Shown in pieces: positions 976 through 61,915 of a DNA stretch of 64,000 bases. Position numbers and translations under genes: made by a program. The notes under the pieces are model-generated. The model worked only from the letters and a program-made list of their open reading frames with translations. It was not told where the DNA came from and did not search any database. Source of the stretch: Rozella allomycis CSF55 (lineage: Eukaryota); contig KE560384.1 of assembly GCA_000442015.1 (NCBI GenBank), forward strand, positions 1 to 64,000. The letters run 5' to 3'. Within the stretch, counting starts at the first letter, position 1; each line of letters begins with the position of its first letter.

Positions 976-2241
976 TTATAATGATTCGTCTGTAACCGTT
1001 TTGGCTACAGATGAATCATCAGTCAGAAATTGTAAGTTTGAATTTTTTAAAAATGTTTTAGTCGAACATGGATCAGAACACATATTATTAATAACACCTT
1101 CCATGCTATCGCTACTATTTTCCTTAATGATATCATTTTCACATATATTCTTGTTAACATTCATATTGAACGGTATTTCCAATAATTCATTAAATACAAG
1201 TCTCAATTTTTTGATTCTTCTTGTACCTAAAGTATTGTCATCACTGGGCAAATTGTTCTCAACTCTTTTAAATGAAATATTTCGCTTTGTTGACATTGAA
1301 ATATCAATTATGTTTGATTGCTTTGGTGATGCTTTAATAACTTTAGTTAAAGATATATTTTTTATTCTTTTTGTTTGAGCTATACTTTGATTTCTTCTTG
1401 AGACCGTAGTAATATCTTTCACAATATCAACATCCTGATCATCCAAGATACTAAACATATTATTATCACTAAAATTAATTGAATCCTTAATCAAATTGGA
1501 TTTCCTGTTAACCTTCCTTTTCAAATTAGAAACAAATGAATTTTGACCCTTGAATATCATAACTTCACTAGTGTTTTTTTCCATTTCCTTTGTTTCAGAT
1601 TCTGGTCTTTTTAAAATGGTTTTTTGATTTTTTTGATTTTTTTTACAATTTTTATGTTTATTAATAGGGAACAATTTCTTGCAATCACTGCATATCTCCA
1701 ACTTTGGACATTCATAAATTCGATGATTTTTTTCATGACAATATTGACAATTTATCTTATTCAAATTAACTCCTTTTGAATTAAATACGTCAATTTTATG
1801 TCCATTAATGTCAATTGATCCAGGAACAAATATTTTTGGCTGGTCAGTTCTTATTATAATCTTGACTATATCCGAGCGAACATTAATGGCATTAGAATAA
1901 ACATATAAATAAACATCATCAACATGAAAATTTGAAAACGCTTGCATAATTTGCTGATTCAAAGCTGTCATGTCATTGACTAATGGTACATTTTTAAGAT
2001 AAAGAGAAACAAATTTGAACTTTTTTTGCAAACACAAAGATGGTGTTATACAATTATTATTAACAACTAGATTATCTTCACTAGCTTTGATAGCATCCTC
2101 CAGAGAATTGAATGTGACGTAACATACAGATCTGTTTACACTTATCTGTGTAATGTTAGAGACCGTTGGCAACTTCAAAATACTGTCAACAACATTTTCT
2201 TCATATAATCTGGTCTTTGCAAACGAGTATGCAACTGAACT
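976..2241 (-). CDS. LINE ORF1 (RRM-like region plus CCHC zinc knuckle)
   Basis: CQYCHEKNHRIYEC knuckle and CYVTFNSLEDAIKA RNP-like motif; interrupted by N at 2242. Confidence 0.8.
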   Translation of the reverse strand, partial: SSVAYSFAKTRLYEENVVDSILKLPTVSNITQISVNRSVCYVTFNSLEDAIKASEDNLVVNNNCITPSLCLQKKFKFVSLYLKNVPLVNDMTALNQQIMQAFSNFHVDDVYLYVYSNAINVRSDIVKIIIRTDQPKIFVPGSIDINGHKIDVFNSKGVNLNKINCQYCHEKNHRIYECPKLEICSDCKKLFPINKHKNCKKNQKNQKTILKRPESETKEMEKNTSEVMIFKGQNSFVSNLKRKVNRKSNLIKDSINFSDNNMFSILDDQDVDIVKDITTVSRRNQSIAQTKRIKNISLTKVIKASPKQSNIIDISMSTKRNISFKRVENNLPSDDNTLGTRRIKKLRLVFNELLEIPFNMNVNKNICENDIIKENSSDSMEGVINNMCSDPCSTKTFLKNSNLQFLTDDSSVAKTVTDESL

Positions 2242-9193: not shown

Positions 9194-10215
9194 TAATAGT
9201 TATTTCCTTCGACAAGGTGCAAAATATTTGAAACTCGTGCGTCAAAGACTTGAACTTTATCATCTTTTTCATTATTGGTAGTTCTTTTAGTCATTGAATT
9301 CCATTCATGAGTTTTATAGTGTTGTTTAAGGTTGTCTAGCCTTGCGAACATTTTTCCACATCCAGCCATGGAACATTGAAAGAATCGTTCACCCGTGTGA
9401 GTCAAAAAATGTCGTTTCAGATGTTCGTATCTTTTAAATGCCTTTCTACAATTTTCTTGCATGCATACAAACTTGCGGTCGCTTTTTTCATCCACATAGT
9501 GTGGAATGTTCTTAGGTGCGTTAAATTTAGCATTAGTAGATGTAATTTGCCCTGGTTTCAAAAAAAATAAGTTTTCATCCAAAGGCCCCTGAAAAGCTTC
9601 TTGGCTTTCTGGTTTTGTATGCGCTTGAGGGCCTATAAGCTGATCAAGTTTGAATTCAGAACTAGATTGGAAAATTTCACCATATGCTATCGATTCTCTA
9701 CGCTTTCCGAATGATTCCAAATTTTCATTAACATTGGCCGAAGGAAAAGAGCTGAGGTCAATAGAATGCGACCTTCCAGACCGGTAGTCAGTATAATAAT
9801 TGATGACTCTCTCGCTTCGATGTATTGCATCATTAACCAGTTTTTCAAAATTGACGCTGTTCCAAATGAAAACTTTTTGCTTCTTTTGAGTGCGAACGCA
9901 CCCTTCCTTATACAGGTACATTAGGAATGGCGACTTGGCTTCTTCCAACGTAGCATGAACACCAGGTTTAAGGGACCTTAAGTCGCTGAAAATACCTTCT
10001 TCAAATTTTTTTAGTGAATTTATTGGCCTGTTTGTTGCTTCCATGTATTGAAAACAGACTACCTTAACAATGTCAGCACCACTAATGAAATGCATCCCAT
10101 TCCAGAGTACACATGATATCGTTTCATCATTTGGAAGAGTGAATTTTCTTACAAGTTCTTCCCCGCTCCATTGGTCCGTTGCACATTGTAAAAAATGAGA
10201 CAGACTTGAGAACAT
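9190..10215 (-). CDS. STE12: Ste12/SteA-type transcription factor (STE domain plus two C2H2 fingers); may extend to ATG at 10291
   Basis: KKFEEGIFSDLRSLK and CVRTQKKQKVF STE motifs; two C-terminal C2H2 fingers with HTGER linker. Confidence 0.92.
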   Translation of the reverse strand: MFSSLSHFLQCATDQWSGEELVRKFTLPNDETISCVLWNGMHFISGADIVKVVCFQYMEATNRPINSLKKFEEGIFSDLRSLKPGVHATLEEAKSPFLMYLYKEGCVRTQKKQKVFIWNSVNFEKLVNDAIHRSERVINYYTDYRSGRSHSIDLSSFPSANVNENLESFGKRRESIAYGEIFQSSSEFKLDQLIGPQAHTKPESQEAFQGPLDENLFFLKPGQITSTNAKFNAPKNIPHYVDEKSDRKFVCMQENCRKAFKRYEHLKRHFLTHTGERFFQCSMAGCGKMFARLDNLKQHYKTHEWNSMTKRTTNNEKDDKVQVFDARVSNILHLVEGNNYY

Positions 10216-10438
10216 CGTTATTATATAAGTGGGAATAACCAACCAGATCTTTATATGTCCCTAAATTTGGCTCGTCGGTTCTGTTCAGCATGGCGTAGTA
10301 TCCAATCAAGAGTACTTGTGCCTAATAATAGAATTTTTTTGGAAACTAAAAAACGATTTATTTATTTGATTTATGCAAAGCGAAGAAGGATCATAGCCGC
10401 TGTAAAAAAAGAAATAATAGCATTTGTTTACGACTTTC

Positions 10439-12051
10439 ATGGCCACTAACAAAAATTCTGGCATTGCAAAATCTTTGACAGACAATTTCATTGAAATATC
10501 ATTAGGGAGAGATAATTTTATTAACACAAAAAAGGATCAAAATCACAAATTGGAATCAAAGGATGCAATAGGAGACGCAAACATCAAAAGAAATCCGAGG
10601 TTGCATGATGCACAACCTATATCTCCAAGGAAGAAACCGAACCTTGGAATAGATACGTTGAACATTTCTTTTGGGAATCACAGTTTCCATCAAGTTGGTG
10701 AAAGCACTAATTTTGTATCTATTAGCCCAATCACTGGATCCCCGCTTCAGGTTCAAAGTCCAAAATCGCCTATGTAAATTTATGTTTATTTCACTTACTC
10801 AGTGTAGTAAAATCATCTTTAGATAAAGGTATTTCTCTGACACGACAGAGGTAAATGGGTCTTGGTGCTTCTTGATAGAAATCTACCACCAAAAGACAAA
10901 GTAGAAGAAGCAAGACACATAAAAGAGTATAATAAACTGATGAGTAATGCAAGAATGAAAGAAAGGCTTAAAAATGAACGCATTAAAGAGCTTGAAACAA
11001 AACGAGAGCAAAGAATGTTAGAGGCGTTGAAGAAATGGAGAAAGTTATTACCGAATTGGTCCAATATGTAATAATGGAAGTTATTTTCATGTTAGAAGAC
11101 GAGACCATAACATGATAAAGTTGTGGGAGATTGGACTCCCACCAAAAGTCAGGGGCTCAATTTGGATGCTTGTTCTAAAATCGGGCGAATCTATAGGTAA
11201 GATATTGAGATTTGTTTAATGGAAGAGTTTAAAGCACTTGTACAATCTGCATTGCAAATTTTGGAAAATCAAAAGAACCACAGTACAGCTGGTATTGAAC
11301 GAAAATATGTTCATGACGTTAAAAGCCTGGAAATTGACATTGCCAAAACACTCCCCGAGTTGAATTTATTTCAAGTATCATGTCCAATGTATGATGATCT
11401 CAAAGAAGTTTTATTGGCGACAGCTCTTTCGTTGATAAATTATGGATACGTAAATTGAAGCCTTGTTTATGATAGAAAGCGGGAATGGCTAATCTAGCAG
11501 CGATGTTTCTCTTGAATATGAACAAGGAGTGTGCATTCGAATGTCTTTGTAGATTATTTGAGCGCAATTTTTTTCAAATTATACATTCTTCGGATGCTGA
11601 TAAAGTAATTTTTGAATTGATGGATAACTTTTGACTGTTCCCCTTTTGAAAGTATATAGAATTGTATTTCAAAAGAACATTCCAGATCTCTATAGTGCCT
11701 TTATGGCTCTTGAATTGCACGAAAATACGTATCTTGTTAAATGGTAAGTAAATTGAAATCGCAATAAAGGCTTGTGTCAATGTATACTACGCTTTTCCCA
11801 TTGGAAATAAGCAGTCGAATTTGGGATTGTGTATTTTTATATGGCGAAGTGTATCTTTTCAAAGCTGCACTAGGTAAGATTTAATATTGCGAATAGTAGG
11901 GTATCTAAAGTTGATAAAACCAAAAATTTTAAACCAGAGTCTGGAGTGGATTATGCCCATGTTGAAAAAGAGTCTTGCCATTGAAGAAAATCAACTATTT
12001 GAAAAAATCAATAGTATTCGTATTGATGATGATGCGTTTTGCGGATTTTAG
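10439..12051 (+). CDS. TBC-domain protein, TBC1D12/14-like (multi-exon)
   Basis: NLPPKDKVEEARH, GLPPKVRGSIW, MFLLNM and FPLEISSRIWD motifs after removing 26-29 nt introns. Confidence 0.85.
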
Positions 12052-12202
12052 TTGACTGTAATAAATCAGAGTCGCTATCTATAATTTACTGGGAGTGGCA
12101 TTAAACATGAGGATTTTAATATTTTTTTAACATCATAACATCATAATATTTTTCTAGTTTAAGCGCTAAAGTGTTAATTTTCCGTTAAAGGAAACCCCTG
12201 TC

Positions 12203-13954
12203 ATGAGTACTGTAGAATTTGAAAGCCAGTTAAAAGAAGCCCTTTCACGCAACCCCCATGATTTTAGTGCATGGGAGCAGTTATTGCAAGTGAACGAGAC
12301 CAAAGTAGCGAAAGCGTTAGCTGAAGCGCCTAGAACAAAGATGACGATAGATACTATGCCAGAGTCACTTAGAAGAGCGATTCAAGGAACACAAAAAACA
12401 TATGATGAATTTCTGGGAAGATTTCCGTATTGCTTTGGATATTGGAAAAAGTATGCCGAGTTTGAGATGGTACACGAGGGAGATGTGAAGGCGAGAGAGG
12501 TAAAAGTATTTTTTTAAAAATAAATCAGGTGTATGAGAGAGGGGTTGGAGCGTTTCCGAACAGTGTTGATTTGTGGATTCAATACTGTACGTTTGTGACC
12601 AAGATAACGAAGAATCCAACTGAGGTGAGGGGGTTGTATGAAAGGGGAGTTGAGTGTATTGGATTAGATTTTATGGCGCATTCATTTTATGATATATATT
12701 TGGAGTGGGAGGAGAATCGTGCGATTGAGCAAAACAGTTATTCGAGGACGTTGTCGTTGTTGGATAGACTGATAAGGATTCCGATGCAGCAATACCAACG
12801 ATATTATGAAAGATATCAACAGATAGCGAATGTGAGAAACGCGAGGGAAATGGTGTCAGCGGAGGAGTATCAAGTGTTGAGAAAGAGGGTTATTGGAGAG
12901 ATGAAGACGAGACAAGTGAAGAACATAGTAAATAGAATGTGAAATGGTTATGAATAGAGAGATGATGCTGTGGATTCAGAAATCAAACAAATTGTGTTGA
13001 ATGACAGAGCAGGGGTATTTTCTATTACAGAAGAAAAAGTAAAGAAGAGATGGCAATTTGAAGAAAACATTAAGAGGCCATATTTCCACGTGAAGCCATT
13101 AGATGAAGGGCAGATCATCAATTGGAATAAATATTTAGATTTTGAAGAGAGCGAAGGAGACGCCGTGAGAATAATTTCATTGTATGAAAGATGTTTGATT
13201 TCTTGTGCGTTTTATGAAGAATTTTGGATTCGCTATTCCAAATATTTGATCTTGATTCAAGATTATGAAAGAGCAGAAAATGTTTTCATTAGATCTGTCT
13301 ATACTTTTATTCCAGAATCTCAACCAAAATGTTTAATTAGTTTTGTCTATTTCAAAGAAAGTCAAGGTACCATGTGGCATAGTTATTTAATCTAGGTACC
13401 ATGTGGCTGAGTGATCTAATCTAGGTAAAATAAATGAAGCGAGAGAATTATTGAATTATTATTTACAAAAAAGACCAGGGCAGTTGCAAGTATTAATTGA
13501 ATATGCCAACTTTGAAAAGAGGAATAAATCTTTTCAAGATGGATTGAAGTTTATTTCCAGTTGGTTGGAAAGCGTTGATGAAGTTTCAAAGCCTTTTCTT
13601 TACTCCTTCTTGGCCAAAAATATTTGGATTTACAATAAAGAAATTAACAAAGCAAGAGAAATGTTCATTAAAGGAATCCAAGAAACAACCGATAAATTTT
13701 TACTCTTTCAATACATTCAATTTGAAATCACAAATAACAATCTAGAGTCAAAAGAAAATGTTTTGAATATTTTTAATTTAATCAAAGATTATTCTTTTCC
13801 AATTCACATCAAAAAACAAGTCGTTGAGAAAATTTGTGATTTTTTAATAGATTGTGGCTGTGCAATGAAAGAGTAAGAAATTTCATGTTCTATTTTTAGA
13901 ATTTCTGATTTCGAAATTTCCAGTTTGAAAGAAATTCTAAATTTCAAAAATTAA
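12203..13954 (+). CDS. PRP39: U1 snRNP HAT-repeat protein Prp39
   Basis: FPYCFGYWKKYA, IGLDFMAH, IKRPYFHVKPLD and LYERCLISCA motifs. Confidence 0.93.
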
Positions 13955-13989
13955 AAGTAAAATTTTAAATTAGTTTATTTCTCAATTCT

Positions 13990-15803
13990 TTAAATTTGTC
14001 TTTGAACTCTTTCCACTTTGTCTTGTTGTTGAATTGCCAATTTCTTAAGGAATGGCAATCCCTTCTTCTTTCTCTTTCCTTGATAGGCGGCATCAACAAT
14101 CTTCCATTCTTCTGGCAGAGGATCTTTACTTTCCCTTGCAATTCTTTCCATCAATTCCCAATTCAACTCCACTTTGATTTCTTCTTCCTTTACTTCTTCT
14201 TCTTTCGTCTTGTTGTACAAAGACTCTTTAAATTCTCTTAAATACGATTGAATAGCGAATGCGTCATCTCTCTCTGCTCCAATCTTCATTACTCTCTCAA
14301 ACGTTCTTGGTGAATATCTGTAGCCAAATTCATACAGCTTTCCATGGATTGAATAGAAAAGATGCGCTTTGATTCTCCTAAACTTTGCCAGCATCGTCAA
14401 ATATTTTATTATTGTTTCATCACTAGTCCACGTATCAAACGGTAACAATGTTGTTCTAATCAAAAACTTTTCCACAGTTCGCTCCTTTTTCTTTTCTCTA
14501 TTCTTGAACAAACTTTCAACCAAACTCGTCAACTGTCCATGATGACTCTTCTTACGCACATCATCACACTTTTTAAACACATCCTCTATCTTGTCCAAAT
14601 ACTGATTCACAAATGCAAACAGTATCTTGTTCTCACTCACAGTCTTGAAATTACCTAACATCAATCAACATCTCTCTTACTCAACAATGTCAACATTCTC
14701 TCAAACATCATTCTTCTTCCTAGCACCCCTGCTTTACTCATCACACTAAACCCCGTACCTGACTCAGCCATCAAATCAATCAATTCCACATAACTCTCCC
14801 GCAAAACATTCCCTGAATTAAAATACCTGGAACTCACAAACAAACACATCACTTCCTCTCCCGTTAGGTATCCCCCATCATAAAACTTTCGGAGTCCATC
14901 CAACACTTGCTCTCCACTAACTTCAGCTTTATCAACAAACGCTTCCATTATATCCAATCCCCTAACCATATCGCCATTTTCTTTCATCTTTTCATTCATT
15001 TTCACATTCCTCAACGCATTCTCATACGTGTTGCTTGTATTCGCAAAAACATCAACAACATATTCCGCTGGCAAATAAATTCCATCTTTCATGGAATCCT
15101 CAATCAAATTTATCGCACTCTCATATTTGCGCTCAGCTACAAACCTCTTAAGGAATTCTTCATCAACAGTTCTTCTTTTCAGCCCCTTGAATCCTTTCAT
15201 TGCAATCCTCTTGAACTTTAAGAAATCAAGATTTGTTCCAGCTAAATGAACAAAGAACTCTCTTCCAAACTCTTCTTCAGTTACTTGATACTTTGCGTAA
15301 TCTATCGATCCAATCACACGCGAAAATTCATCAGAATCTTTTTCAGCCAACATTATCAAATATTTGCTCAACAACCACTTGTCTGCATCATACCCAAGCA
15401 TCATTCCATCAAGTAGCATCTTCATGGCATAATAGTCATTGCTATCCTCTTCACTCATACCCTCTTTCTGTGAATATTTCAATTCAATCATATTCTTCAC
15501 CTCTTCATCTGTTGGTCTATTCACAAGGAATGTTAACCCCTTAACACTCATCCCAGATAGCACTGCACTGATTGTATACTTGTAAAATGGAAGTGTAATT
15601 AAATTTTTATAATTTCGATTAACATGCTGGAACAAATTAAATGCTGGTAACGCTTCCCTTTCATGCGCGTATTTAGATATAGTCGTTAAATATGGGTTGT
15701 CTTTTAAATCGTACAATGTAGAATACAATTTTGGGGCATTTACAGTAAACTTTGGGGTGCAAAGAACGCCTCTCTTTAATACATTGCGAGTTATTAACTT
15801 CAT
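13990..15803 (-). CDS. Hypothetical helical-repeat protein, possibly mitochondrial (2 exons)
   Basis: Two long ORFs joined by a 26-nt GT-AG intron near 14655-14680; basic N-terminus MKLITRNVLKRG resembles a presequence. Confidence 0.55.
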
Positions 15804-15882
15804 TGTATTACCCCTGCAATATCCAGTTATGGAAGGACCAAATAGCAAAACATGCAAACAAATTAAAGTGTAATAAAAATAT

Positions 15883-18309
15883 TTATAAAGTAATATTAAC
15901 ATCTCTAATTTCATTCACGATAGAACTGGCTTTGCGGTAGACTTCAAGCATAGTCTTGCACTTTGCTCTTTCTTTGGCTATCAATTCATCTTCTTGCAAA
16001 AGTTCATTAAAAAAGTCTTCCTTATAAAGCTCTTGAACAAGCTGATTTTGAAGCATCTCTTTGCTATAATTTACTAGAAAATGCATTATTGCTTTTGGTA
16101 CAGAATCTTGAAGGTTTTTGCGCACGACGTTAAAGTATGATTCAATAAGAGATTCTATGTTTGATTTAAAGAAAAAAGGTACTGATAAGTTGAGTTTCTA
16201 CTTGCTCCTTTTCAGACATGTTGCTTGTGTCTTCTAACACAGATGGGGGCTTATGTAACGGATTAGTCATTCTTACTTGTTCTAACTCTAAATTGGAAAG
16301 AGTCATATCCATCAATTCATCGTCTAAAACTCGAGTTTCTTTTTTCACTGGCGCCATAGCCCGAACAGGTGAAGACATTCGTTTATTCTTTATATGCTCT
16401 TCTTGATTATGATTCACACCAAATAAATAATGTAAAAATCCACCTTCTTGGCCTTTATTGATTCTTCTTCTTGCCTCTGCTGTAACTGGAAGGCCAATTG
16501 ACCCTGGTAATTGCGTTGAATTTGTAAATTGCGGGTCAGTGTTTTCATCAGCAACAATTCTTTCTTTAGTGGGCTGATTTGTCAAAAATAATGTATCTAC
16601 CTTTTTCTCTAGAGTCTCAGTTCTCTTGCTTTCGTGCATTTTTCCCAAAGCTTGTATTGCAGCTGCGGCACCCATAAAGTCTGGATGGTTTGTATTAATG
16701 TACGCAAGCTCAATTCTAACCAAATTTTCAATCATCGAACTGGTCTCATTTAATCTATTTTTAACCAGTTCGCTAGAAGCATCAATGACCTTTTTGTGCA
16801 AATTCGGAAACCTAAATAATTCCTATGTGGAGATAAAAATTGAATTTACCATTGATTCACTTTGGTGAAGAATTTTAATCAGTTCATCGTAAACAAGCTC
16901 CATACAGCGCATTCCTGGATATTCTAATCGTTCAATTTGCCTCTTCACGAGAATCTCAAATGATATTTCAGGCACGAATAGGCATGACCTAGGACCCTAA
17001 ATTCAGTCATTTTTTTATTAATACAGTTGAATTACGAATAACAGTTCTGATATCGTTTATACTTAATCCTCCACAAGGGTCAATATTGTATAACGCGTTT
17101 CTGTAAATTTCGTTAAAAATGAAATTAATGCGCGCGCCGCCACACCTTTTGAATTAGTTAAATAATCTTTACAACTCGCTTGTTGAAATGTTTTTGGAAG
17201 TTCCATCCACAGCGTCACAAAAGTCATTTGAGAATTTTGTTATCAATCTCAAAAGCAATGTACCCTATTCTTTCTTTTAATGCATCATTACTCTATGGGC
17301 ATTCCCTTGGAAGTTGGGGTCGCCATAGCCCATTAATTCATGTTGTGTGCTTACTACAAGACTATTTATCTTATTCTTCAATTCAGGCAACCGATCTCTG
17401 ATATGTGCAACCAATATTTGATTTAAAGATCTCGCCAAATAAGCCGAGCCACACCGATGAGCGATACCTCTGTATTGCGGATGATGTCGAAAAAATTCTA
17501 ATTCTTTTTGCATAGCGTCTATCACATTTTTTTGTTCATTTATATCTTTTTGACTTCTATTAACAACCCCGATGAATCCCAATTTCAACTTAAAAGGACC
17601 TTTATTGCACAAAATATCATGGGCACTTGTCCCCTGGTCCATTAAATCCAATTTGGTTAAAACACCAATCGTTCTTAATCCTTGTGGATCAACTTCCCGC
17701 GCAAATTTTAAAGACTCTGAATTGACAATATCTATATTAGCAGGTGTCACAGCCAGTAGAATCGAATTAGGGCGCGAAGAATATTCATAAATCATTTCTC
17801 TGATTTGTTGCTCAATGTCATCAGGCTGATCTCCGACTGGAATCTTATTATTCAATATTTTAATTTTTTACTTTTGTTATTCCTGGGAGATCTACCAGAG
17901 TTAAATTCAACACTTTTGTGGAATAAATCTTTAAATGTATAGGAGTCTTTGATATTCCTTTATTATTACCCGCAATTCTCTGTGTTTCCTTTTCAATTTC
18001 TTTTCTTATTTCATTAAAATCCGTGTATATTAATTCTGGGCTGTGTAAGAAGACGCCCCATTCTTCAACTCCTGCCATATTAATAGCATTTTGATATGAT
18101 TCGTTTATGAGCTGCAACACTAGAGGTCTCCTAGTAACTATATCGTTGCCTCTTGGAAGAAAATCCCTTTGGACAAGGGACTCCAAAACGGAAGACTTGC
18201 CACTACTTTGAGAACCTACAACTACGATTTGGGGAAGATCAATAGGGTCGTGGGAAATAACATTAAAAACATCTTGCAACTTGTTTACAATAGGTATTAA
18301 ACTTTCCAT
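15883..18309 (-). CDS. DNM1: Dynamin-related mitochondrial fission GTPase Dnm1/Drp1
   Basis: [38 protein letters not shown] and a C-terminal GED; 6 introns of 27-28 nt. Confidence 0.9.
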
Positions 18310-19089
18310 TTTGTAACTGGCAAATCGAAAATCGGAAATTCACAATTCATATTGTTCAAACTATTGTTTTTTGAATAAAACCATCATATAAGGGTAGAAA
18401 AGACTGTGGAGAAGGGATGATTCAGTGAAATCCCTCAATCAAAAAACTTTGGTTGCCTAAAATCTCTATGGTATCGCCACAACTGCTGATGTAAATAGAA
18501 CCAATTTGGAATTTATTCTTACTTGGGCATAAATCTCAACTAAGTAAATGAACGAAATTCTTGGGATGATTAAACAAATTTATTTGATTGATTGATTTAA
18601 GTAATGTCTTCACATTCGTGGCAGTGAATTTTAGAAAATTTTTCTTTGAAAACACCAATTAACTCAGAATGTATCAGTCAAATTAAATAATCAATTCTCT
18701 CTTGCATCAATCAATGGATCTTGAATTCTTTTGCGAAAGTCTCCCAACGAGCCAACACTATTCCAAGATTAAGAGTTAAGACATGATCTTCGAGTCATCA
18801 TCTTTCTTGTCATTGAATTGCTTCAACCTTATTTTAAGAAACTGTCTAGCAACGATATCGTTTATGCTCGATAGAACACCGTGATAAGTTAATGAATGTG
18901 GTACAGGATATAAAATTGGAAATATCTTTGTAATTTGCTCACAAATTCAAAAAGGAATCATATTTTAAAACTTTGTTGTGTGACACTGACTTCCAATTGC
19001 TAATGCTTTCCAATTACACCTATTTTACAATAAAATAGAAATGGAAATTTTTAGTTTCAACTTTCTTAGTTTGTTTATTTTGAAATTTC

Positions 19090-20594
19090 ATGACCGTTGT
19101 TGTAAGCTTTGGAAACAAACTATTTCGGAGAAATATATACTTTTCACTATTCACAATCGCTTCATTTGTTATTTGCTTGGCATGGTATAATTCACGAGCG
19201 GTAGATGATATTCATTCAAATGAAAATGAAAAGTAACTCGATATTTATTTTATATCACCAGTATTAATCCAATTAATTCCGTGGTTGTTGAAATTCAGGA
19301 TATAATTAATAATCAAGAAGGCATAGGTGCGATTTCAAAAGAATATAAATCTACGGACATAACGGATTTGGCGAGGTCATCATTTTTCTGCTTTGATCAA
19401 AAATCTAGAAACGCTAGTTGCCATTTTACCAACGTATGTGTCCATCCGACTCATGGGCCAATGTTATTATCTGCCAATCTTAGTGAATTGAGTAGAAACG
19501 ATGTGTTCATAACAAAGAACCCGATTTATGGTATTAATGAGAGAGAAAAAATGAATCCATTATTGCCGGGCGTAAATTTGGTGGCTGCGAACACTTGGGA
19601 CGACCGCTACTATTTTCCAGCCGTTCTACATAACAAACAAGATGACCGAAATTCTAGAAAAATGGATATCAATGAGTATCAATTTGAAATGATTTATGAT
19701 ACTGTCTTGCTTGTTTATTCTGAATACAGTTGGTATCATCTTAGTCATTACATAATGAACCTAATTAGGCCAATGATTAATATTGTTTTAAACAATAAGG
19801 AATTAATTGAACAACAAAATTTCTTAACTGAATTTCAAGAATTGGTGAATATAAATGCAAGTTTTAGTCCATATTTCTTTACAGAATCAATGAAATGGAG
19901 GACTACCGGGTATTTCTATGCGATTTCACGACCTGCATTTTCACCTCATTTCTTGGTGGATGATTTTTATATAGCCGATTTGTCAAATGTTGTTAAAAAT
20001 ACTTCTTTTTCAGATAATAATAAAGTACGGTGCTTTCAAAAAGGAATTGCAGGGGATTCCAGTTCGTTTCAAAGAATTGAGTGGGGAATTGAAAGATGGT
20101 TGTTAGTCAAAAATAAAATTTTGGACTATTTTAAAATTATTCGCGATGAACGGCAAGCAAAGACTCAGATTCCTCATTGTATTGTAGTTCAAAGAAGAAA
20201 GACCAGGGTTGTAAAAAACATGGACGAGTTAATTAAAAGACTACAGACTAAAATAGCTATTAGATTGGTGGAATTAGAAGACATGAGTTTTACCGAGCAG
20301 CTGCAAATGTTTTCAAGATCGAAATGCCTCATTGCCGCGCATGGTAATGCATTAGGCAACATGATATTTTTACAAACGCGTCCGATAGTATTTGAGCTGA
20401 CTCTTGGAATCAGTGACTGGTTTTGGACGATGGCCAAGGAAATCGAGTCGGAATATGTGTATTTAGAATTTCATTCAAAGGATTTTGGATTACCTGAAGA
20501 AGTTGGAATGCCTATAAAAGATAGAAATTTCATTGTAGACATTGACCGCGTAGAAGAAGCTTTGACGTCTAGACTCTCTTTGTTTGATAAATAA
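19090..20594 (+). CDS. Glycosyltransferase family 61-like type II membrane protein
   Basis: N-terminal TM exon, then a 29-nt intron; C-terminal EQLQMFSRSKCLIAAHGNALGNMIFL motif. Confidence 0.75.
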
Positions 20595-39338: not shown

Positions 39339-42300
39339 TTATTTGTCTACCTTTTCCTTTGAATTATTTTCGTTTTGATTTTCCAAGTCTTTATCATAGC
39401 CCAACAACCAATACGTTCTCATTGAACCTTTTCCCTGATTGCAAATAAAAGAGACTGTTACTTTCACTTGAATTTCACCTCTATATTCAGTTTTGAAACC
39501 GCTTAGTTTTTGAAGGGCATTGTAGGCGGACTCGCTGAGTTGAATTTTCATTGCTTCCGACGTACTCTCCATTCTAGATGCAACATTGATAGTGTCACCA
39601 AATAAGCAATATCTAATGATTGTAGGATTAAATAAGCATACCTTGGTAATTTTAATCCGACAACACCAGTGACACATGGACCTTTAATGTGCTTGAATAT
39701 TCATATGTTACCTAGTCGATGGTGATTACTTTATTAATTTACCTGTGTTGATACCAATTCTTATCTGTAGTTTGAAATCTGGTTTATGTGGCACTGTGAA
39801 ATTTTTGGCTTCTTCCAATAAATGAAGGGCCATTTTTGCGATTTCACCGACATGTTTAATTCCATTCCGTCTAGGCAAACCAGAAGCGACCATGTAGCTA
39901 TCACCTTTGATAAAACATATTGAAAGAATACCTATGTGAAGGATTAAAAATGGTTACCTATTGTTTCTACTTTATAAACGTCATATTGACCAATAATTTT
40001 ATCAAACATTGAATATAATTTATTCAAGAATTCAACTATTTGATTTGGAGTGCTTGAAGATGTCAAATCAGAATAGCCCACAACATCAGAAAAGTAGATT
40101 GTACATTCGTCAAACGATTCTGGCGGAACTGGGATTCCTAATTTGACTTTGATTTTTTAAAAAACCTTTTTGAAGATTTGAAGCAATTTGAGGCGGTAAA
40201 ATTTCTTGTAATAAATTCTTTGCATTTTTCTGGGCTGTAGCCAAAGCGCTAGCCACACCTTATGTTAAGAAATGAATAATGGGAAACCTTGATAATTTTA
40301 TTTTAACTATTTTACCTTTAATTTGAGTTTCTTTCATTATTCGAATTTCTTCTTCTCTCGCTTTGCTTTCTTCTTCTTCTGTTAAATCTCTAATGACCCC
40401 TGTAAAAATATGAAAATCTTCTTCCAAAACTTCAGTGACGGATAAACTAATAGGAAATTCATCTCCATTCTTTTTTCTCCCTGTTACTGTTCTTCCAATG
40501 CCAATAACTTTCTTAATCCCAGTATTTAAGTAATTTGACAGATAAGTGTCGTGATTTGTTGCGAATCTTTCTGGCATCAACATTTTAATGTTTTCTCCAA
40601 CAACTTCTTTTGCTGAATAGCCAAACATATTCTCTGCTGCTTGATTGAATCTTAAAATGATGCCATTCTTTCCAATGCTAACAATTCCATCCAAAACTGT
40701 ATTCAAAACTGAACTCAAAATTCTTCTTTCAACATGCATCTTCTTTTCTGACTCTCTAATAATCAAATTGGATTGTTTTTCTCTTTCCTGCATTGCTATA
40801 ATCTCCTCAATCTCTTTTCTATGATTGCTTCTAACAGTCTTCAAGTAATTTGATTGTTCTTCATCCAAAATTAATAATCTCTCGTTATGGTTTTGCTTCA
40901 TTTGATTGTATTCCTGTAAATGAATCATTTTTGAATCACCTAAATTCATTTCCTTCCTCTTTACCAACGCTTTGTGATTATTAATCATTTCTTCCAATTG
41001 CTTTTCCAATGATTGAATGTGCGAATCATTTTCTACTCCAAATTTATTATCAATTTCCAATTCTTCATTAAATGCCATCGATATCTCGGAATCATTGTCT
41101 GAAATATCTCCTGTAGACCCTTGTGATTGCAACCCCTGTGATTTGGATTTCGATTTGATCGATCTGTTTCTTGTATTATTATTCTTTTTAAAATCTCTCA
41201 TCTCTTCAAATTCATCCTCCTTTTCTTCATTCTCTTCAATCTCCTCCTCTAAGTCAACTTTACTCTTCATTAGCCATTTCTTTCCCCTCATTGACGCTTG
41301 AAGTAAATGTTCTCTTTGGAGTTGTTTCAACTGCATCTTTTGATTTCCCCTCAGTTTTTTCAAGTCATTCGCTTGCTCTGTCTTTATTTTCACCATCTTT
41401 ATTGTTTCCCTCAGGTTTTCAATCTTTTCTTTACTAGCACTAATCTCTGCCTTTTCATTCAACTCAATCTCTACAAAAGAAGAAGCTTGACTAAGCCCCA
41501 GAGATTGCAATTCTTCATAAAACTCTTCTTCTTTTTCTATTCGCTCTTTTCTTTGTCGCATTTCAATAATCTGAATCTCTCTCAATTGTTCACTCTTCTT
41601 TTTATTAATCACCTTCAAGTTATTCATTCTAAACTGGAAATCTTTCATCTTGTCCATCTGCTCATATTCCATCAAATGCTTAGATTCCAATTCATGAAAA
41701 ACTTGCTCATCTCTCATCAATCTCTCTTGCTCTTCTTGCAACTGCCTTTGCTCCCTGATATGTCTCTCCTCCATCTGAACAACTAAAGCTTCATTTGCTA
41801 ATCTCCTCATATCAACACTCTTCTTCAAATTTTCAGCAGCCATCCTACTCGCCTCCTGCTGATGAATCAACATGGCGCGACTCTTTGTCTCCTTGTACAT
41901 CTGCTTCTGAAGCCGCTTTGTGTTCCGCCTATTCTGACGCTCCTGCAATACTCTCAAATGATTCTGCTTCTTATGTTCCATCTCCTCTCTATGCCCCGCC
42001 TTCATCACACTCACCTCCTCCTCGCATCGTCTCTTGAAATACACATCTTCCTCTTTTCTATTTCATAAATTTTAAAAATTTTACCTGCTTAACTCAATCT
42101 CTGCCCTCTTGATCTCATTCTCCACCTCAATAGCATTTCTTCGTAATTCACCAATAATTTGATCAATCATGCACTGTTGTTTCTCTCGAAACATACGAGT
42201 TGCTTCCTCATTTGATAAAACATTCCCTTTATGACCAACTACTATGGGTTCAAATGTAGATGATCTGCTGGGCCGGTCGTTTGCTTGGACTCCTAGTTGG

Positions 42301-60947: not shown

Positions 60948-61915
60948 TTATTTCATGTTAATTTTTTGACATGTTAAAACTAACGCTCTCAGACTGGAAG
61001 ATATTGACATGTTGCCGTATAGCGTAGATTTTCCAATTATCTCCACTCCTTGTAATAGTTCTTCATACGGCAAGGTTACATTAATTTCATAACTATCAAT
61101 AAAAAGATTAGTGCATTCTTTCCATTGATCGAAACTCATGTCTTTGTCTATAAAATATTGCGGAATCCATTCAGTATCACCAGAATGAGACAACAGTTCT
61201 TGCCAATTTGCATGATTGGAAAGAGTCTTGGAATTTACAAAATCAATAATTTCTTTTCTTAAGAAAGCTACACAATGTGCATACGAATTTATGACACTAG
61301 ATGCCTGTATATCAATGCAAAGTTGATCCAGCTTTCTTTCCTGTAGCTGTATATTAATGCCAAGTTGATCCAACTTTGATCTTCAGTTTTTTTTTCGTGT
61401 TTGCCTTTTATCTCTTCAATTTCCTTTTTAAACTCCTCAAACTCTTCTCTTTCTATAAGTTTTCCCGAGGTACCCTTTTTCTCCTTTGCATGTNTTCCCG
61501 AGGTACCCTTTTTCCCCTTTGCATGTCTTTGCTTTTTCGAAAGCTCTTCTACTTTCTCTTGCGCTATCAAAGCATCTCTGGCATTCACCTGCCCTGCTTC
61601 TAACTGTTCACGGATAGGTGTAATTGGCATTAGGTTATGGTCAATAGGCGAATATTCTATGGAGGCGGTATGCTTACTGAGCTTCTTGGCCCGCATTATC
61701 CAGTCCTTTATTTTCGTACTTTCATCGACATTAGGATATAGTCTTGCATTCAGCAGGGTGTCTCTCAAGCCATAAGATTCTACCATCTTCTCTCTAGCAA
61801 GTCTAATATCATCCCTATACAGCATTTCACCAACAGTGGCGTTTTCGTCAACCGAAAAAGTTACTGTTCTTTCGGCCTCTGTCAAAAGAATTCTAATCTC
61901 GATGTTCTCAGACAT
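60948..61915 (-). pseudogene. Ubiquitin-like N-terminus plus coiled coil protein (possibly Crinkler-like) with an apparent frameshift
   Basis: Two overlapping ORFs switch frame near 61375 with no intron; N at 61494. Confidence 0.4.

Follow-up and report, generated by a model that had tools for sequence, protein, structure and literature searches.

Tandem arrays of minimal introns in the genome of Rozella allomycis and their probable removal by recursive splicing through zero-length exons

The PRP39 gene of Rozella allomycis CSF55 contains an intervening sequence of 58 nucleotides (nt) that consists of two abutting, similar introns, and it is with this pair, and with the class of intron arrays to which it belongs, that the present report is concerned. 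The gene is located on contig KE560384.1, within the window, that is, the whole 64,000-nt stretch that was analysed, and coordinates are positions in the window unless a locus or contig label is given. Unit 1 (13367..13395) and unit 2 (13396..13424), both on the forward strand, are 29 nt long each and start with a GTA donor; unit 1 has the end TTAAT-CTAG, where TTAAT would, by the consensus, be a branch-point-like motif, and unit 2 has the end CTAAT-CTAG. The units are identical at 25 of 29 positions and differ at the other four (14%), and the acceptor of the first directly abuts the donor of the second (TAG/GTA, 13393..13398), which makes this junction a candidate zero-length exon. The exon 5' of the pair (12958..13366, forward strand) ends in AAG and the exon 3' of it (13425..13872, forward strand) starts with GTA; a 5-nt direct repeat, AG/GTA, is found at both ends of the pair, and the repeat as a whole extends over 13365-13427, a segment that Tandem Repeats Finder reports with a score of 98, a period of 29 and 2.2 copies, ranking it second among 35 rows in the window. 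The original prediction, namely that a complete 29-nt intron had been tandemly duplicated in PRP39, is borne out by this anatomy.

The host gene was identified as PRP39 by Pfam matches to HAT_PRP39_N (PF23240, E 3e-26) and HAT_PRP39_C (PF23241, E 2e-42), and the best protein match, labelled Rozella allomycis, is identical across the query exon. The upstream exon covers PF23241 positions 1-106, up to its last full codon, and the downstream exon covers positions 107-139 from its first residue, such that upon removal of all 58 nt position 106 is joined directly to position 107; furthermore, the junction is ungapped in the alignment with 12 fungal orthologues. Script translation shows that loss of all 58 nt restores an open PRP39 frame and that retention of unit 1, unit 2 or both leads to a stop 9 codons past the upstream exon, in agreement with the earlier claim that both units have to be removed. 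Some open frame is kept by 21 GT/GC-AG pairs, including 13367-13424, of which only 13367-13424 fits the homology. The public PRP39 protein model P0001 joins the 13367 donor to the 13424 acceptor, and another model, P0121, is of the same length. In the predicted product, zero exon bases would separate the two units. There is no AG 26-31 nt beyond the last PRP39 junction, so a donor read there would probably find no partner.

Could the pair be an artefact, with two alleles of one intron written in succession by the assembler, as the original prediction itself had allowed? Joined duplicates do occur in this assembly, with N at the join, at 61461-61526 in the window and in the loci L113 and L122; there is, however, no N at the PRP39 pair. 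Contigs of four of the 15 listed sequencing runs, with the possible source run of the assembly excluded, were compared over 10500-17500, and those from three runs and three studies (X2, X4 and X5, the last two studies possibly belonging to a single campaign) run through both units with no gap or joint listed there, whereas a single unit would appear as a 29-nt gap. In particular, record 9 of X2 covers 13222-13786 with 0 differences and 0 gaps, record 12 of X4 spans 11029-13874, and record 18 of X5 spans 10500-14186; the only gaps listed in the bridging contigs are at 12100 and 13939. The contigs of the RNA run X13 touch only a simple repeat near 14171-14206 and are uninformative on the pair. 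Concatenation of alleles by the assembler therefore strikes us as exceedingly improbable.

X4 and X5 represent a second haplotype, with differences at 13095, 13098, 13660 and 13794; the listing covers all but 15 of the difference rows, and for X4 it contains 19 of 20 differences, which lie outside the pair. The haplotypes differ at about 20 of 2,847 sites (~0.7%), and both carry both PRP39 units. Given that the units differ by 14%, the duplication would predate the split of the haplotypes, unless the locus was homogenised. Thus, the suggestion that the pair is young stands only relative to other arrays, the four differences in 29 positions and the presence of both units in the two haplotypes speaking against it in any other sense. 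A rare one-unit allele may persist, as contigs can drop rare variants. The haplotype differences are dense just 5' of PRP39, at 11865-12117, where 12 substitutions and 3 small indels are listed.

Are the 58 nt, then, one intron or two? The most straightforward alternative holds that they are a single intron removed in one step, from 13367 to 13424, the internal junction being a leftover of a recent duplication. One canonical GT-AG event would indeed yield the right protein, the public models join the exons in exactly this way, and the 25/29 identity of the units suffices to explain why the junction is intact in this pair. The evidence that runs counter to this alternative comes from the rest of the genome, because the PRP39 pair belongs to a class found throughout the genome, wider than the first reading had it. 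In the window, the two-unit pattern has 3 matches, where 100 shuffles lead one to expect 0.06 and none of them gives as many. Genome-wide, a strict pattern comprising two TAG/GTA junctions and a third acceptor at spacings of 26-31 nt yields 180 matches, which overlap inside arrays and so are not a count of arrays, compared with 0 matches when both spacers are lengthened by 10 nt and 2 when the pattern is read backwards. The two-unit pattern at the same spacing yields 238 matches, compared with 55, 101 and 25 when 10 nt are added to the first, the second or both spacers, although these shifted controls themselves include array rows; read backwards, it yields 148-169 matches at every spacing, a count that is insensitive to spacing and was not taken as a baseline.

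A tally made by hand, excluding two copies of N-joined duplicates, comprises 21 arrays of 2-7 units, with 75 units in total, in six genes. In three genes, protein homology continues precisely across an array. The SMC1 gene (L112) has three arrays, of six, five and seven units; the six-unit array amounts to 169 nt, and across it the protein passes from residue 519 to residue 522 of the S. pombe chain, with exactly two residues between. For the third SMC1 array, Pfam gave no informative match on the two flanking exons, and the join was read by eye. The glycogen debranching enzyme gene (L113) contains four arrays, with PF06202 passing from position 263 to 265 across the last. In the window itself, on the reverse strand, a guanylate cyclase gene (PF00211), which we take to be PAS-domain-like, contains arrays of dissimilar units: 39905..39957 (26+27 nt, TAG/GTA junction, last acceptor AAG), before which lie PF00211 positions 2-57 and after which positions 59-108, one glycine being formed over the junction; 39682..39742 (31+30 nt, last acceptor AAG; pattern and Pfam); and 40259..40315 (28+29 nt, both units ending in AAG; frame read by eye). 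The stretch 39682-40315 of this gene thus combines three two-unit arrays with three single introns. The genes at L114 and L122, presumably Hydin-like and dynein heavy chain genes, respectively, judging from their motifs, have five arrays apiece in the parts that were viewed, with joins read by eye. The arrays are clustered: long AT-rich genes (L112, L113, L114 and L122) contain several each, and most of those read there are in phase 1, inside a glycine codon.

These arrays appear to follow a common grammar. Internal junctions in the 21 arrays are TAG in 49 of 54 cases, AAG in four and CAG in one, including junctions between unrelated-looking units, whereas the last acceptor is AAG in 16 arrays and TAG in five. 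A G both before and after the intervening sequence is found in 21/21 arrays as against 4/16 single introns, although some of the search patterns also required the flanking G, so that this tally is partly biased. The sixteen single introns of the window, of which 12 come from an untrained gene prediction and four were placed by eye, measure 26-30 nt, and three of them end in AAG. Among the first 100 of the 180 strict-pattern matches, which are those listed, some last units are plainly homologous to their neighbour but have AAG at the end in place of the neighbour's TAG (C623:3647-3710 and C611:151055-151120), which suggests that this base is under selection. A simple copy of the end of the upstream exon was rejected as the source of the terminal AAG, since the third-last base agrees in only six of the first 16 arrays read.

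A check independent of the array pattern is provided by kinase genes, in which gaps were selected by homology between consecutive pieces. All three gaps that implied an intron of about 52 nt proved to be two 26-nt introns, the exons between them being about 78, 21 and 2 nt long. The last case, at L246:126-179 (G000:C645:41725-41778, reverse strand), is the most telling: by kinase homology and frame, the two bases between the introns complete an arginine and an aspartate codon, and no single GT-AG intron yields that frame. The 2-nt exon being needed for the kinase frame, homology requires that the two minimal introns at L246 be cut separately, although hardly any exon lies between them. Together with the zero matches of the shifted-spacing control against 180, and with the persistence of in-register junctions in arrays that reach 208 nt and are built of dissimilar units, these kinase pairs make removal of the PRP39 58 nt as one intron in our view unlikely.

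The hypothesis that appears to accommodate most of these observations, and that we regard as likely, is that each unit is excised separately, through a zero-length exon, by recursive splicing, and that arrays grow by duplication of whole units. Under this hypothesis, the 58 nt of PRP39 would be two complete minimal introns, each lost in its own spliceosomal reaction: the removal of one unit would leave an ordinary 29-nt intron to be removed in turn, and in longer arrays any removal would leave a shorter array. The spliceosome of this organism would work over about 26-31 nt, and an intron site could lengthen only by whole units. The second unit would have arisen through local duplication aided by the AG/GTA direct repeat at the ends of the parent intron; more generally, intron sites of the G/…/G type would create a short direct repeat at the intron ends, which probably seeds the duplication, perhaps through slippage. 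The early proposal that duplication was the origin of the pair is therefore upheld for the second unit and fails for the intron site as such, the units being unlike the flanking exon ends. Every internal TAG/GT junction would be kept by selection. The principal argument for separate excision is that the junctions stay in register among diverged units, whereas relic junctions would be expected to decay along with the unit; with 49 of 54 internal junctions being TAG, and 180 matches against 0, the TAG/GT junction appears to be maintained by selection in the array class.

Several points weigh against this hypothesis. For every array, separate excision is deduced from the DNA sequence, and in the PRP39 pair the high identity of the units makes the intact junction weak evidence for selection; furthermore, the last acceptor of PRP39 is TAG, one of the five exceptions among the 21 arrays. 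The four two-unit counts are ambiguous, the excess being about 107 under an additive null, whereas a multiplicative null predicts about 222 against the 238 found. The search patterns required YAG junctions and 26-31-nt spacing, which renders the tallies of lengths and junctions partly circular. The untrained gene model of 10001-20000 included six introns of 46-148 nt among 21, so long single introns, as single-step removal would have it, remain compatible with the data: the 46-nt intron was reread as one of 28 nt and two were read as spanning gene boundaries, which leaves three on the forward strand in the gene 5' of PRP39 (10774-10848, 11529-11659 and 11729-11814; 75, 131 and 86 nt, respectively). 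Finally, re-splicing can be prevented by the exon junction complex; Mago nashi is present in the genome, so the complex may bear on the order of removal. No relative yielded an orthologous locus with which the PRP39 junction could be compared.

A more ambitious scenario, which we put forward tentatively and consider possible rather than probable, involves a ruler-like spliceosome that removes only about 26-31 nt. All longer intervening sequences would then be arrays removed unit by unit that lengthen as whole introns are duplicated at G/…/G sites, with TAG/GT as the internal ratchet point and AAG/G as the mark of the array end; the PRP39 pair would represent the first step, before the acquisition of an end mark. 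Introns of ~30 nt have been described for Rozella allomycis (PMC6349667), and a density of 2.5 introns per kb has been given (PMC8476143), with arrays going unmentioned in the accessible parts of these two sources; the introns of this organism are mostly under 32 bases.

Does it matter that the host gene encodes a U1 snRNP factor, as the original prediction noted? A conceivable scenario is that the pair is kept because it acts as a feedback switch: were its removal slow or incomplete, PRP39 transcripts with a stop would arise and thereby adjust the level of the factor. The Pfam assignment of the gene and the early stop caused by retention of either unit are compatible with such a switch, and similar feedback has been reported for prp10 of S. 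pombe in the accessible part of the source (10.1101/226894). However, a stop would follow from the retention of any intron here, and RNA folding of 13350-13440 revealed no stable structure over the pair, the prediction being no better than that for shuffles (z 0.15). Above all, the same architecture occurs in genes without a role in splicing: three times in the guanylate cyclase gene in this window alone, and also in the genes for SMC1 and glycogen debranching enzyme and in others. A special role of the host gene is thus not supported, and a feedback switch appears quite improbable. The contig from which the window is taken also contains a U1 snRNA candidate (G000:C36:99865-100023, reverse strand; L245), which scores 69 bits against a cut-off of 69.5; its 5' motif is the ordinary ACTTACCTG, and nothing there explains the arrays.

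How do the arrays compare with known systems, as far as these are described in the accessible portions of the sources? In the recursive splicing of Drosophila and mammals, a 3' splice site likewise abuts a 5' splice site (AG/GT), and the intron is removed stepwise without an intervening exon (PMC8605326). The same arrangement, an acceptor abutting a donor inside the intervening sequence, is found at TAG/GTA 13393-13398, and the pair is a probable member of the class of recursive, zero-nucleotide-exon splicing. The known animal ratchet points, however, subdivide long introns, whereas here complete introns of 26-31 nt tile the whole intervening sequence, and many array units are visible copies of one another, unlike the known ratchet-point pieces (PMC8605326). 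Isolated fungal recursive introns, namely that of S. pombe SPNCRNA.445, 336 nt long (10.1101/226894), and that of C. neoformans BOT1, 375 nt split into 210+165 (10.1101/224170), are also of the U2 type and divided by a zero-length exon, as demonstrated by spliceosome profiling. There are one or two such cases per genome, the BOT1 pieces are 165-210 nt long, and no duplication is reported in the accessible parts of these two sources (10.1101/226894, 10.1101/224170); in contrast to these profiled cases, Rozella allomycis has arrays of 2-7 units in many genes, as read from the DNA sequence. The stwintrons of ascomycetes, also the subject of PMC8469720, are likewise complexes of two U2 introns removed in consecutive reactions, with small duplications invoked in their origin, but in a stwintron the order is set by nesting, the inner intron lying within a splice signal of the outer one, whereas here the units are placed side by side, complete and duplicated whole (PMC7138796). 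Indeed, each of the two PRP39 units has intact GT and AG ends, and they lie directly next to each other.

The gain of introns by exon duplication, in the model of the Rogers type, similarly involves a tandem duplication at AG/GT that creates new splice junctions and leaves the protein unchanged; in that model, however, it is exon sequence that is duplicated, whereas here it is the intron itself (PMC4974935), and the PRP39 units are unlike the flanking exon ends beyond the 5-nt AG/GTA repeat. Introners, defined by similar copies over many unrelated genes, are not indicated either: a genome search with the exact pattern derived from the shared ends of the PRP39 units matched only these two sites, a search that diverged copies escape. 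In the literature search, which covered mostly papers outside subscription journals and did not extend to supplements with possible intron tables, such arrays were nowhere described, and Rozella combined with recursive splicing gave no match. A scan of metagenomes for like arrays returned at least 120 stretches, and the 13 that were viewed all resembled satellites, minisatellites or coding repeats. Taken at face value, the array architecture would be a variant of recursive, zero-exon introns unlike those described.

If separate excision of the units is indeed how these arrays are removed, recursive splicing would not be a rarity of long introns but an everyday and probably obligatory route in a genome whose introns are tiny. 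Furthermore, there would be many intron births with the parent sequence visible next door, whereas the parent sequence is usually lacking in studies of intron gain, at least as discussed in the accessible part of one source (PMC4974935). In experimental terms, the 58-nt pair of PRP39 would be the simplest test substrate, with one junction, two products and one point change, and the asymmetry between internal TAG and terminal AAG would offer a handle on the order of splicing.

Some further observations concern the remainder of PRP39 and the other array genes. PRP39 contains two ordinary single introns on the forward strand, 12500..12528 (29 nt) and 12928..12957 (30 nt), for which the untrained gene prediction agrees with P0001. 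The same prediction points to a probable last intron of 27 nt (13873..13899, forward strand) that is not in the public protein model; the fungal PRP39 orthologues run on past the end of P0001, and removal of this segment would probably lengthen the protein by about 17 residues. As for the joined duplicates, the one at 61461-61526, a 33-nt tandem repeat that is the top Tandem Repeats Finder row in the window, looks like a scaffold overlap and not like biology. The N-joined gene ends at L113:1400-1500 and 1861-1974 (reverse strand) and at L122:1150-1370 (reverse strand) have different intron units at one site, and one copy ends in TAG where the other ends in AAG; these copies probably represent the two haplotypes, in which case arrays would be polymorphic. 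The C861 stretches have few junction matches. Finally, L113:2154-2180 (reverse strand) is a 27-nt in-frame, stop-free stretch that starts with GT and has no AG at its apparent end, and might be either a retained or a non-canonical intron.
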